A stretch of 64,000 nucleotides of DNA from Gammaproteobacteria bacterium (GCA_028819195.1 JAPPMF010000009.1:84363-148362), one strand, 5' to 3'. Positions 3,081 to 6,746 are shown, numbered from the stretch's first letter. The notes: generated from the letters alone by a model not told the origin. Made by a program: numbers and translations.

Positions 3081-4898
3081 ATGACTCGAATTATTGGAAT
3101 AGTTGGATTGATTTTCCTGACGTCTGCGCTAGTGGCTAGTGAAAGCATGCCAACGAATCAATTCACGATTGTCGGCCAATACATTTTGGATGACAAAGTG
3201 ATATTGGAAGACTCTGCTAGAAACGAAAACGTGGAAGTGAAAGTTATCGTCTATAGCAAATCACGAGATGGTTCCGACACAGCAAAAGAAGCAGTGCTTG
3301 TAGTTGAATCTTTTGTCGAAGGGAGCGTTGTTCTCTCGGGGGAAATCGGCGAACCTACTGAGGTGCTTATTGCGGTACATTTGGATCACGACCGGGAATT
3401 GACCACAAATGCGCTCATTGTTCCTGGTGGCGAGTCAGTTTCGTTCGCAGTGATTGACCGCAACGATTCCGAGTTGGATCAATTGCTACTAGTTGGTTCC
3501 TCTAGGCGTGCTATTGATCCGACAAAGAAATTTTCGATTTCTCGAGAGTACCAGTCTAAGGGCAGAGGAACGAATGAGTCAATTCGTTGGGTAACGGTTA
3601 CCTCTGAAGAATTCGGAGCTGACGGGACTCCACGGCAAATTGAGTTTGGCACCGTAATGATTGAGGATGGGAAGTATCTGATCGAGGCCGACGTGGATGA
3701 GCCTAGAGTGGCGCAAATTAGTGGGTACCGAGGATCCGATAGCGAATACCCTATCTCCGGCACCTATGTAGTTATCGAGCCTGGTGCAAAGATTAGCTTT
3801 GGACAACATGGACCAGGAGACGGATTCACATTTCCAACTGCCGAATCAGGAAGACATGCCAAGCTTCTCGATAGTTGGCGCACCAGCGACGAATATCTGA
3901 ACACGCTTCATGCCTACTACGAAGCACAAGACAAACATTTTGCTGAGAGGGACCCGCATGAAGTGATTTCAGAACAGAACAAGTCTGAGAATTCAGAAGA
4001 ATCAGAAAGCCAAACCTCCACGGTGGAGGCTACAAATGTAGAAGAAAATTCCCTAAAAACAACAGAGCCAGCTCTAGCTACTGAGACTTGGCCAGCGGAA
4101 GGATGCGAACATGTGGTCTTGGAGGAAGTAATTCCCGGTTACAAGGGCCACGATCCGGACGCCCCAAGACCCGAGCCACGCTACGAGTACCAATTGATTT
4201 GGAAACGTGTCTCAGAAATACGGCGGGAGTCGTTGAGAGACTTCGCTTGGAATTCTGACGACCCTTTCGACTCGCTCGTTGCACTGGAACTTGGGAGAAA
4301 GTACTGGACGTGGAAGGACGTAGAACAGACTGCCATTCTGAGGTTGTACGACAAGCTCGCAACAGTCCATGGCGATGATGTCGTGGCTCGCAGGATTAAG
4401 CCGGCGCGCGACCAGCTTGCCGGTGGCTTGGATAGGCTTGCCAACAACAAGAGACTTGAACCAGGGCAGAAGGTACCCGGTTTCACGCTCGCCAATTTGA
4501 ACGGCGAAAAGGTCTCGCTAAATGATGTTCTTGCAGGGAATCGGTTGGTGCTTGTTGATTTCTGGGCTTCATGGTGCGGACCTTGCATCGCAGCCTTCCC
4601 AACTCTCAAAGAGATGCACGAAAGCTATAGCGAACAGGGCTTCGAAATCGTAAGCATCTCCATAGACGATGTTTTCGAGGACTGGGCAGAAAGCTCTATA
4701 AGGTATGAACTTCCCTGGATAGATGTTGGAGAAATGAAAGGGTACGACGGAACTGCGGCAATCGACTACGGCGTTACATTCCTACCCAAGACCTACTTGA
4801 TTGATTCGAATGGATGCATTCTTCAAAAGGATATTGAACCTGAACAATATGAGGAATTTGTTACTGCTCGGTTTAGCCAAGACTCGACAGTCCAATAG
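3081..4898 (+). CDS. Secreted multidomain TlpA/ResA-like thioredoxin-fold protein, paralogue 2 (605 aa)
   Basis: RBS ggagga. Signal peptide MTRIIGIVGLIFLTSALVA. Repeats QFTIVGQY...VVLSGEIGEPTEVLIAV and KFSISREY...YLIEADVDEPRVAQIS. SGRHAKLLDSW. E/S/T-rich linker. GCEHV at 4101-4115. DPFDSLVALELG. DDVVARRIKPARD. VDFWASWCGPC. Confidence 0.88.
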   Translation: MTRIIGIVGLIFLTSALVASESMPTNQFTIVGQYILDDKVILEDSARNENVEVKVIVYSKSRDGSDTAKEAVLVVESFVEGSVVLSGEIGEPTEVLIAVHLDHDRELTTNALIVPGGESVSFAVIDRNDSELDQLLLVGSSRRAIDPTKKFSISREYQSKGRGTNESIRWVTVTSEEFGADGTPRQIEFGTVMIEDGKYLIEADVDEPRVAQISGYRGSDSEYPISGTYVVIEPGAKISFGQHGPGDGFTFPTAESGRHAKLLDSWRTSDEYLNTLHAYYEAQDKHFAERDPHEVISEQNKSENSEESESQTSTVEATNVEENSLKTTEPALATETWPAEGCEHVVLEEVIPGYKGHDPDAPRPEPRYEYQLIWKRVSEIRRESLRDFAWNSDDPFDSLVALELGRKYWTWKDVEQTAILRLYDKLATVHGDDVVARRIKPARDQLAGGLDRLANNKRLEPGQKVPGFTLANLNGEKVSLNDVLAGNRLVLVDFWASWCGPCIAAFPTLKEMHESYSEQGFEIVSISIDDVFEDWAESSIRYELPWIDVGEMKGYDGTAAIDYGVTFLPKTYLIDSNGCILQKDIEPEQYEEFVTARFSQDSTVQ

Positions 4899-4931
4899 TA
4901 TTGAACCTCCACCACATTAAGAGTCTGAAAC

Positions 4932-6746
4932 ATGAAGAGAAAGATACTGTTAATACCTTTGATTTGCATAGCTGCTTGGTCGGGCTTAGGCGAGCTTGAT
5001 CCTGAGAAGCGGTACACCATTATTGGAAAATATGTACCCATTGACGAAGATCCTAGCTATGCAGCGCTTGCAAACCCACTGAGTGAGGACGAGCAGGAAG
5101 AAAATCTCTCCGCAGCTGAAGTTGTGGTTTTTGAAGAGACTACACAAGAAGATGGAGAAGCCCTGCTAGTCGAGATTTCGCGAGGAGTTGTTTCCAACGG
5201 ACGCGTGGTCCTTGAAGGGGAAATCGACGAACCGATTTTCGCGAAGATTACTGTGCAAACGAGTGATTCGAAGACACTGTCAGTACGAACGTTGCTAGCT
5301 CCCCGACAGGTCGTGTCGTTTGCCCTCCTCGACCACCAAGGACGCTTTCCACCCGATCAGATGGTCTTGGTAGGAGAATCAAGGCGTGCCAAGGATCCGA
5401 ACAATCGGTTTACGATAATCGGTGATCTAACCGGTATTGACGAAACGCAGTACCCGATGCCACGGGTTTCTGTACGGGGCTCGGCATTCGACGAGGACGG
5501 CAATTGGGTCTATCGTAACTTTGGAACAGTCCAAACTACCGATGGGAGTTTCCTCATCGAGGGAGAAGTCGACGAGCCGCGGTTCGTTACGATCTCGGTC
5601 TCTTCCAATATGGGGCTGGTTTGGGGCTCCACGGAGGCCATTATCGAGCCGAACGCAGTGATATCCGTCGTTGTGTCAGCACATTGGGTCAACCGATTAG
5701 CGGCCGCAGCTGGTGCGGGCAAGCACGCTAAGCTCATTGACACTTGGAGAATGAGTGAGCAATATCTCGCGACGGAGAAAGCACTAGATGAGGAATTCAA
5801 GAAACTGCGTACCGAAACTGCGCCCATAGAAGAGAACGACACAGAGGCTGAAACTGAGAACAATCAGACTGAATCGGAGTCGATTGAGAACCGTCAGGAA
5901 GCGAAGGAAAAAACAGAGTCGGCTATAGCAATCGCTTCTGCTCCAGCTCCTGCCATAGGCTGCGAGCACGTCGAGGTGCAATGGAGTGATATGTCCGAGG
6001 AACAGATTGAAAGTGCGGATAGTCAGTCTCGACCACCATGGTTGGCTCTGCAGGACGAACTACGTGAAATCCGCAATGCAAAGCTGCAACAGATTGCATT
6101 TGATTCAGAAGATCCCTTCGATTCACTACTCGCACTGGAAATGAATCCTTTTCAATCATCTGAACACCAGATCAATGACGCACCACTACCCGTGTACGAA
6201 AAACTGATGTCGTTGCTCGATGAAGACATTGTGGATCGGCGCGTAAGACCCCGTCGTGACGAGCTCGCGATGCTGGTTGCACGCGACAGGAACAATAAAG
6301 CGCTTGTGCCCGGGCAAAAGGCCCCAACCTTTAGTTTGCCAGCCCTTGAAGGGAACGAAGTTTCTCTGACTGACGTTTTGCATGACAACAAATACGTGTA
6401 TATCGATTTTTGGGCGTCATGGTGCACTCCTTGTATCGAGGATTTCCCCGAATTGAAGGACTTGCATGCTTCCTACAGCGATGATGGATTCGAGGTTCTA
6501 ACCATTTCTGTCGACGATACCCACGACGAGTGGAAGGAAGCTGCGGAAAAAATCGAATTTCCTTGGATTGACGTGGGTTCGCTTGGCGGAACCGAAACGG
6601 AGACTCCTGTTTCCTATGGAGTTCAAGGAATTCCCAAGGGATTCCTCGTGGACAAGGAAGGATGCATTGTTCAAAAGGACATACGCCCGGATAGGCTCAA
6701 GAACGAACTTGCAACTCGATACGCCGAGCCAATGACGACAGATTGA
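4932..6746 (+). CDS. Secreted multidomain TlpA/ResA-like thioredoxin-fold protein, paralogue 3 (604 aa)
   Basis: Signal peptide MKRKILLIPLICIAAWSG. Repeats RYTIIGKY...VVLEGEIDEPIFAKITV and RFTIIGDL...FLIEGEVDEPRFVTISV. GAGKHAKLIDTW. Acidic linker. GCEHV at 5958-5972. DPFDSLLALEMN. IDFWASWCTPC. Confidence 0.88.
   Translation: MKRKILLIPLICIAAWSGLGELDPEKRYTIIGKYVPIDEDPSYAALANPLSEDEQEENLSAAEVVVFEETTQEDGEALLVEISRGVVSNGRVVLEGEIDEPIFAKITVQTSDSKTLSVRTLLAPRQVVSFALLDHQGRFPPDQMVLVGESRRAKDPNNRFTIIGDLTGIDETQYPMPRVSVRGSAFDEDGNWVYRNFGTVQTTDGSFLIEGEVDEPRFVTISVSSNMGLVWGSTEAIIEPNAVISVVVSAHWVNRLAAAAGAGKHAKLIDTWRMSEQYLATEKALDEEFKKLRTETAPIEENDTEAETENNQTESESIENRQEAKEKTESAIAIASAPAPAIGCEHVEVQWSDMSEEQIESADSQSRPPWLALQDELREIRNAKLQQIAFDSEDPFDSLLALEMNPFQSSEHQINDAPLPVYEKLMSLLDEDIVDRRVRPRRDELAMLVARDRNNKALVPGQKAPTFSLPALEGNEVSLTDVLHDNKYVYIDFWASWCTPCIEDFPELKDLHASYSDDGFEVLTISVDDTHDEWKEAAEKIEFPWIDVGSLGGTETETPVSYGVQGIPKGFLVDKEGCIVQKDIRPDRLKNELATRYAEPMTTD

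Follow-up and report, generated by a model that had tools for sequence, protein, structure and literature searches.

A second, probably structural, cysteine pair in a lineage-specific family of multidomain TlpA-like proteins from Gammaproteobacteria

Results

Six paralogues and their cysteines

We analysed a stretch of 64,000 nucleotides from a Gammaproteobacteria bacterium (GCA_028819195.1, JAPPMF010000009.1:84363-148362; hereafter the window), in which six copies of one gene family, all on the + strand, lie within bases 1-15,000 and 42,300-44,200. The interval under study (3081-6746) comprises two of these genes, P2 (3081-4898, 605 amino acids) and P3 (4932-6746, 604 amino acids), and our subject is a cysteine that both proteins carry in a Cys-Glu-His (CEH) motif and that probably forms a structural disulfide with a second cysteine of the same chain. 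Each intact paralogue begins with a signal-like N-terminus and ends in a TlpA/ResA-like thioredoxin domain with the motif WASWCxPC; between the two lie a pair of DUF4369-like beta-sandwiches and a helical domain. P2 was delimited by its open reading frame (ORF), by alignments and by matches to the Pfam families AhpC-TSA, Redoxin and Thioredoxin_8 at residues 461-589, and the same architecture was found in P3 by its ORF, Pfam and an AlphaFold2 model. The further copies are P1 (1284-2870), a short type that lacks the acidic loop, the CEH motif and the beta5 cysteine in the paralogue alignment; P4 (9402-11361), a broken chimera according to ORF reading and alignment to P1; P5 (11498-13336, 612 amino acids; ORF and Pfam); and P6 (42423-44150, 575 amino acids from the Met at 42423; ORF and AlphaFold2 model), a probable lipoprotein. 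Hydrophobic signal-like segments at the N-termini were recognised by eye, P6 has the lipobox-like sequence FTSC, and the AlphaFold2 models of P3 and P6 each begin with an N-terminal helix.

The thioredoxin domain is a member of the TlpA/ResA/CcmG-like superfamily by Pfam, sequence and fold. The intact paralogues score 55-70 bits against the three Pfam families named above (cut-offs 26-27), and both WASWC[GTA]PC and the proline of 'IPK' are invariant in a 22-sequence alignment, being lost together only in a clade of homologues without CxxC described below. The catalytic motif is CGPC in P2 (4575-4586, within WASWCGPC), CTPC in P3 (6423-6434, within WASWCTPC) and CGPC in P5 (13019-13030). Scores against the NCBIfam models for TlpA (NF047696), ResA (NF002854) and DsbE/CcmG (TIGR00385 and NF011941) were 42-72 bits and did not reach the cut-offs of 123-359, and the paralogues are therefore not filed under those names. 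Matches to Pfam DUF4369 (PF14289, cut-off 25) were obtained for P1 (29.9 bits), the N-terminal part of P4 (26.2 bits) and P3 (21.8 bits), with no match for P2, P5 or P6.

The first-pass annotation of this DNA had described a lone cysteine in an invariant motif following a low-complexity linker in five paralogues. When read in the frame of each gene, the five intervals give exactly the motifs it had named: GCEHV in P2 (4101-4115; Cys342, codon 4104-4106), in P3 (5958-5972; Cys344, codon 5961-5963), in the N-terminal part of the chimeric P4 (10446-10460) and in P5 (12575-12589), and ECEHI in P6 (43338-43352). When the window is translated in all six frames, CEH turns up only three more times, each time outside the family genes. 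As had also been stated, P1 has neither the acidic stretch nor the motif. The divergence of the paralogues had been put at about 50%, which understates it, their pairwise identity being 26-41%.

The CEH cysteine is indeed the only cysteine of the mature paralogues outside the thioredoxin domain, but the label 'lone' is misleading because a fourth cysteine is present inside that domain. In all CEH-bearing paralogues it lies in the motif 'D..GC[IV]' at the start of strand beta5, 80 residues past the CxxC. It is Cys579 of P2 in 'DSNGCIL' (4815-4817) and Cys578 of P3 in 'DKEGCIV' (6663-6665), in each case the first residue of beta5 and the proposed partner of Cys342 and Cys344 respectively, and the corresponding codons are 13262-13264 in P5 (Cys589) and 44082-44084 in P6 (Cys554, the counterpart there of the CEH cysteine Cys307). 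The mature CEH-type proteins thus have exactly four cysteines, an even count. The beta5 cysteine is missing from P1 and from the P1-like 3' half of P4. The distance from the CEH cysteine to the CxxC is fixed at 151 +/- 5 residues, and the two non-catalytic cysteines are 234 residues apart.

The two cysteines occur together throughout the family

We searched 1.84 billion cluster representatives exhaustively with a HMMER profile of the N-terminal and middle regions only; 200 proteins scored at E<=1e-3, of which 111 reached E<=1e-30. Cysteines were counted only in sequences complete over both sites. In this first set 84 proteins have both cysteines (nine of these without CxxC), 26 have neither and one is an exception, P0049, whose C-terminus is garbled, cannot be aligned and looks frameshifted. 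A second search, in a 90%-identity collection, supplied 111 further proteins; 92 carry both cysteines, 18 carry neither and none is discordant. The two non-active-site cysteines are therefore either both present or both absent, with no sound discordant case in either set.

On a neighbour-joining tree, which is crude, about 11 switches between the two states are required, and a nearest-neighbour test points to at least a few independent transitions. For example, P0214 (both cysteines) and P0050 (neither) are about 50% identical, and in P0050 the CEH-bearing loop is deleted together with a change of GCI to KQI. The first 60 residues of these two proteins are nearly identical, and gene conversion between paralogues confounds the count of transitions.

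The homologues also allowed conservation of the motif itself to be scored. No complete homologue with the loop lacks the CEH cysteine, a degree of conservation far beyond chance, and the residue is invariant among the both-cysteine proteins; the Glu is kept in 79-87% and the His in only 81-83%. The His is absent in about 17-19% of members, most often replaced by Asp or Glu, and by Gly, Ile, Val, Thr or Lys in divergent ones. The residue before the cysteine is Gly in about 76% and otherwise Glu, Asp, Gln, Arg or Ala. The claim that the triplet marks a functional site has held up: the motif is conserved and ordered, and its cysteine is invariant wherever the loop exists.

At 50% identity the family falls into about 200 clusters, which without exception come from Pseudomonadales or from metagenome-assembled genomes (MAGs) of Gammaproteobacteria, with several copies per genome, and identity between members falls to about 25%. 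Judging by related loci and sequencing runs, the window itself comes from one of the uncultured Pseudomonadales (Ca. Azotimanducaceae-like) of sponge and coral metagenomes, and the family seems to be confined to sponge- and coral-associated Pseudomonadales and to have expanded there. Where public annotation exists it reads 'TlpA disulfide reductase family protein' or 'redoxin domain-containing protein' and nothing more.

Nine representatives in the first set, none of them in the window, form a clade without CxxC (P0055, P0062, P0067, P0077, P0080, P0090, P0094, P0095 and P0113). Since both the CxxC and the cis-proline are lost, the thioredoxin domain of these proteins should be catalytically dead. 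All nine nevertheless keep the full architecture, GCEHVDLS and GCI. A different variation was found in the short-type homologue P0086 (806 amino acids), which has a C-terminal DUF547 domain fused to it.

Predicted structure of the CEH segment and the acidic loop

The AlphaFold2 model of P3 (m025bf73d9fe8) was built from a 22-sequence alignment and has a mean predicted local distance difference test score (pLDDT) of 80.8 and a predicted template modelling score (pTM) of 0.73; that of P6 (m822f016ea8d4), built from 132 sequences, has a pLDDT of 87.8 and a pTM of 0.80. Both models show the two sandwiches. In P3 these span residues 27-135 and 143-260, followed by helices at 264-294, helices at 369-457 and the thioredoxin domain, in which beta4 is 569-574 and beta5 is 578-582. 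The CEH segment (341-350) is predicted as an ordered island with a pLDDT of 79 between disordered stretches at 297-335 (below 50) and 351-365. In P6, residues 301-310, which include ECEHI, form a non-helical coil with a helix on either side and a pLDDT of 97. A motif buried in disorder far from any domain would have spoken against a functional site; the models instead place it in ordered segments of both proteins. From thioredoxin-fold topology and the secondary structure that DSSP assigns to the P3 model, the first residue of beta5 would sit at the end of the sheet opposite the CxxC and the cis-proline.

The acidic low-complexity arm of P3 (residues 297-335; 5820-5936) lies upstream of the CEH anchor. 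Across the family the arm is 13-290 residues long (median 47) with 31% Asp+Glu, and in P6 the loop is short and non-acidic. Its variable length and composition suggest that, if the arm has a role, bulk charge matters more than a particular sequence. The first-pass annotation had placed the motif directly after a linker; an acidic stretch is present upstream, but it is better described as an insertion loop within the helical domain than as a linker between domains.

This view of the loop comes from the helices on either side of it. The helix signature, GRHAKLLDSWRTSDEY in P2 (3849-3896) and GKHAKLIDTWRMSEQY in P3 (5718-5765), covers the first helices of the helical domain, which in the P3 model are 264-273 and 276-294 with a pLDDT of about 95. 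Across about 141 representatives, P1-type proteins included, the His and the Trp of G.H..LI.SW..S.EY are each kept in 96%, and the Tyr in 83% with Phe in a further 12%, whereas the Gly, the Leu and the Ser are each kept in only about 70%. The helix had been called invariant, which is nearly so for the His, the Trp and the Tyr/Phe position and overstated for the other three. No pair in the family covaries more strongly than 264-397, where Arg/Lys with Asp/Asn alternates with Tyr-Ala or Leu-Val, which indicates that the G.HAKLI.SW helix packs on the DPFDSLLALE helix across the loop. With the flanking helices packed together, the supposed linker is an insertion loop of a single helical domain rather than an interdomain tether.

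Covariation was measured as mutual information with average product correction over 166 both-type sequences (effective number 126), a signal that phylogeny dominates. For segment 343-351 the blocks that covary best are 454-464 and 572-584. Glu345 is accompanied by Lys or Arg at 463, in the 'PGQK' strand, in 124/166 sequences. The residue two positions after the CEH cysteine and the residue two positions after the beta5 cysteine also vary together: His occurs with Leu, Ile, Val or Asn, Asp or Glu occurs with Tyr (21 cases), and His with Tyr was never seen.

Foldseek placed the thioredoxin domain with 2LRN, 4GRF, 3FKF, 3GL3 and ResA (E about 1e-11; target TM-score 0.8-0.9). In searches with both models only the thioredoxin domain and the structure 4YOD were matched, and no solved counterpart of the helical domain was found.

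Damaged copies of the gene

Two of the six copies are damaged. P1 ends early, as 'GGSHSKGHRT' followed by a stop codon, since the run of five Gs at 2838-2842, near its 3' end, is one base too long. When read one base shorter, the frame runs on as KGVVIQRDIEPDQLEELL, as it does in relatives. Of three sponge-metagenome runs, two have contigs without the extra base, which means that the population includes an in-frame P1; the insertion is either homopolymer variation or an assembly error.

In P4 the N-terminal part with GCEHV ends at 10523, and a P1-like 3' half follows in another frame at about 10504-11037 with 87% nucleotide identity to P1; this half has 'GVV' where the CEH-type genes have 'GCI'. 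About 80 residues of the helical domain have no counterpart in the chimera. Farther downstream a 3' remnant of a CEH-type gene (11089-11361, + strand) stands alone and retains GCI, with its Cys codon at 11293-11295. The 5' junction of P4 lies within single contigs in three runs. From its sequence, P4 looks like the product of gene conversion or recombination between tandem paralogues.

Gene neighbourhood

Two genes for exported thioredoxin proteins with a C-terminal helical-repeat region (6866-8065, motif WCAPC; 13392-14486, motif SCDPC) each come after one block of TlpA-like paralogues, an arrangement that looks like segmental duplication. Ankyrin repeats are clear in the product of 6866-8065, and that of 13392-14486 has no ankyrin match and may be degenerate. 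The thioredoxin-ankyrin gene recurs beside family members in six related loci. Ankyrin proteins are a hallmark of sponge symbionts.

Between the thioredoxin-ankyrin gene and P4, 8179-9090 encodes an exported FGE-sulfatase/PvdO-like protein. Its top NCBIfam match is PvdO, far under the cut-off, and inspection of its sequence revealed no pair of catalytic cysteines such as true FGE has. A single ORF of 817 amino acids in a related MAG (L039, 2808-5261) joins an FGE-like domain to a family thioredoxin protein, with the gene order unchanged, a hint that the two are linked in function. In addition, a tandem pair of paralogous small membrane proteins with several predicted transmembrane stretches (15061-15420, 119 amino acids; 15461-15829, 122 amino acids) sits between the paralogue cluster and glmS. 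The product of 15061-15420, the one of the pair that was scanned, has no Pfam match.

The remainder of the window is a chromosomal origin region with glmS/glmU, atp genes, mnmG, yidC, dnaA, dnaN, recF and gyrB. In the region viewed (about 26,000-36,000) the cumulative GC skew has its minimum at about 32-34 kb, just upstream of dnaA (34905-36233), which fits a replication origin between yidC/rnpA and dnaA. A DsbD/CcdA/ScsB-type electron donor was looked for in the window and none was found, the surroundings being origin-region housekeeping genes.

P6 is flanked on one side by an AAA/DUF4143 ATPase gene (41001-42224, - strand). On the other side lies a small island of non-housekeeping genes (44336-49162), which encode a ParA/MinD-like ATPase fused to TPR repeats (44336-46198, - strand), an MqsA-type antitoxin-like zinc-ribbon/helix-turn-helix protein (46198-46755, - strand), a methyltransferase-like protein (47368-48225) and a DUF5131 protein (48260-49162).

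Discussion

A disulfide that would staple the loop to the thioredoxin domain

We propose, with a probability of roughly 65%, that the CEH cysteine and the cysteine of the beta5 motif GC(I/V) form an intramolecular, non-catalytic disulfide, by which the acidic loop of the helical domain would be stapled in the periplasm to one edge of the thioredoxin domain. The perfect co-occurrence of the two cysteines points to such a bond. The spacings between the cysteines are fixed beside an arm that varies from 13 to 290 residues, and the pair is kept when catalysis is lost. From these patterns and from the models we infer that a bond joins the two cysteines, that its role is structural and that it lies away from the active site; a disulfide at the end of the sheet remote from the CxxC would stand outside the catalytic cycle.

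The paralogues would be exported and the disulfide formed afterwards, presumably by the oxidation machinery of the periplasm. Between helices 2 and 3 of the helical domain, long-type members are predicted to carry an inserted loop that is variable, acidic and disordered, and the CEH segment would be its one ordered point, docking beside beta5 and the N-terminal 'PGQK' strand of the thioredoxin domain. With the staple in place, neither the loop nor the helical domain would be free to shift against the thioredoxin domain. The Glu and the His may serve as local packing or hydrogen-bonding residues rather than catalytic ones, Glu345 with Lys/Arg463 and His346 against residue 580.

Several observations weigh against this proposal. 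The co-occurrence is partly phylogenetic, because the sequences are related and the neighbour-joining tree is crude. No DSSP beta-bridge is present at the CEH residues in the P3 or the P6 model, and the geometry of the staple was derived from pLDDT, DSSP and fold topology only. Covariation between the CEH and beta5 blocks reaches only the 94th percentile of all blocks, the pair 346-580 ranks just 754 of 166,829 in the mutual-information scan, and the covariation of Asp/Glu with Tyr may come from a single clade. Moreover, the Glu and the His beside the cysteine are conserved beyond what a plain staple needs.

Alternative explanations

It is possible that the extra pair is instead a second redox-active or regulatory (allosteric) disulfide, a switch or electron relay served by a DsbD/ScsB-type reductase, by the neighbouring thioredoxin-ankyrin protein or by the CxxC of another molecule, with the His and the Glu tuning the thiol pKa. 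The frequencies of the adjacent Glu and His suit such tuning, the family lies in conserved clusters with other exported thioredoxins, and a function of its own would fit the survival of both cysteines after loss of the CxxC. However, the fold topology places the beta5-start cysteine distal to the CxxC, which makes an intramolecular relay unlikely; the pair lacks CxxC-like local geometry, the window holds no reductase gene, and Asp, Glu or a non-polar residue takes the place of the His in about 17-19% of members. We consider this reading unlikely, while giving it some weight. Its narrower form, a resolving or relay cysteine for the CxxC domain as the first-pass annotation had suggested, is contradicted by the clade that keeps GCEH and its partner without a CxxC, and is disfavoured for that reason and because the partner would be distal. 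The annotation had also offered a metal ligand. Here Cys344, His346 and Cys578, perhaps with Glu345, would make up a Sco-like copper or zinc site, and the CxxC-less members would bind or sense metal too. Two invariant cysteines with a mostly retained His, the commonest substitutes of which (Asp and Glu) are metal ligands as well, are compatible with such a site, as is the persistence of the pair in catalytically dead members, and the literature links TlpA-type reductases functionally to the maturation of copper chaperones. Yet the His is missing from up to about a fifth of the family, its place being taken in divergent members by the residues listed above; neither a CxxxC nor any other known metal motif is present, and adjacent cysteines in the oxidising periplasm are expected to be disulfide-bonded. 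The evidence on balance favours another role, and a metal site is improbable. More generally, the CEH segment and the beta5 cysteine may constitute a functional centre of their own, either a Cys2-His(/Asp) copper/zinc site or a redox switch, that was kept after decay of the CxxC, a prospect we regard as doubtful.

Cleavage is a still weaker candidate. As a processing site, which was the third role offered, the motif would be cut between Gly and Cys by autoproteolysis or by a peptidase, freeing the N-terminal domains from the thioredoxin part. A Gly does precede the cysteine in most members and a disordered stretch comes before the motif, but a variable -1 residue and the order of the motif argue against processing; the motif is also packed in both models, the helices around the loop covary as one domain (264-397), and the obligatory beta5 cysteine would be left unexplained. 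We regard it as very improbable. An internal lipobox, like autoprocessing at the Gly-Cys bond, was ruled out by the same variable residue and ordered motif, and heme-binding CxxCH and a cysteine-protease triad were ruled out on sequence grounds. Finally, the conservation could be phylogenetic inertia of a young family without a specific function, since the family is limited to one lineage and to about 200 clusters. This can hardly be credited when the cysteine is 100% kept among members about 25% identical, in a flanking loop hypervariable in length and sequence, and when both cysteines have been lost jointly in several lineages.

Significance and comparison with known systems

The proposed disulfide gives the motif a structural meaning that can be tested: four cysteines in two pairs, one catalytic and one stapling. 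What is new is an extra, probably structural, disulfide in a lineage-specific multidomain TlpA-like family, and the gain is modest unless the site proves to bind metal or act as a redox switch. In that event the sponge-symbiont paralogues would represent a new class of periplasmic metal- or redox-sensing proteins and not ordinary disulfide reductases. Of most interest for further work are the members that retain the pair without a CxxC. Annotators can use the pair together with G.H..LI.SW to tell long stapled, short unstapled and stapled CxxC-less sub-types apart.

Among known systems, the Sco/ScoI copper chaperones, which bind copper through a CxxxC and a distal His, have in common with the family two cysteines and one His on a thioredoxin-type scaffold. 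They differ in that the family has no CxxxC, other ligand positions, no sequence match to them and a His that is not universal. ResA, CcmG (DsbE) and StoA belong to the same thioredoxin sub-family by sequence and fold, although the scores fall under the curated cut-offs. Unlike those proteins, the paralogues have no cytochrome-c maturation genes around them and cluster with the thioredoxin-ankyrin and FGE/PvdO-like genes.

TlpA of Bradyrhizobium japonicum/diazoefficiens (PDB 1JFU, 4TXO), a periplasmic thioredoxin-like reductase, is exported and has the same TlpA-like fold with WCxxC. The sequence match extends over the whole domain (E 9e-9), and the NCBIfam TlpA score is 50 bits against an equivalog cut-off of 230. 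TlpA is a single domain on a membrane anchor, whereas in the paralogues two beta-sandwiches precede the helical domain that carries the CEH loop, and the CEH cysteine lies about 150 residues upstream in that loop. The closest mechanistic precedent known to us for the proposed staple is the second, non-catalytic disulfide of TlpA (1JFU), which joins an N-terminal extension to a strand near the C-terminus. Our literature searches returned no citable statement on this structural disulfide. We assume that Cys578 of P3 may correspond to the structural cysteine of TlpA, given that arithmetic on the alignment ranges makes the two positions compatible within 1-3 residues.

The closest architecture and the best structural matches are those of the Bacteroidetes proteins with DUF4369 and thioredoxin domains (4YOD; thioredoxin domains 4GRF, 2LRN and 3FKF), in which a sandwich is followed by a TlpA/ResA-like domain, and 4YOD matches with a target TM-score of 0.45-0.47 over 261-307 aligned columns. 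These relatives have one sandwich, no helical domain and a Lys ('GKI') where the family has its beta5 cysteine. Compared with them, the family described here has a second sandwich, a helical domain of about 190 residues with G.H..LI.SW, an acidic loop and the extra cysteine pair.

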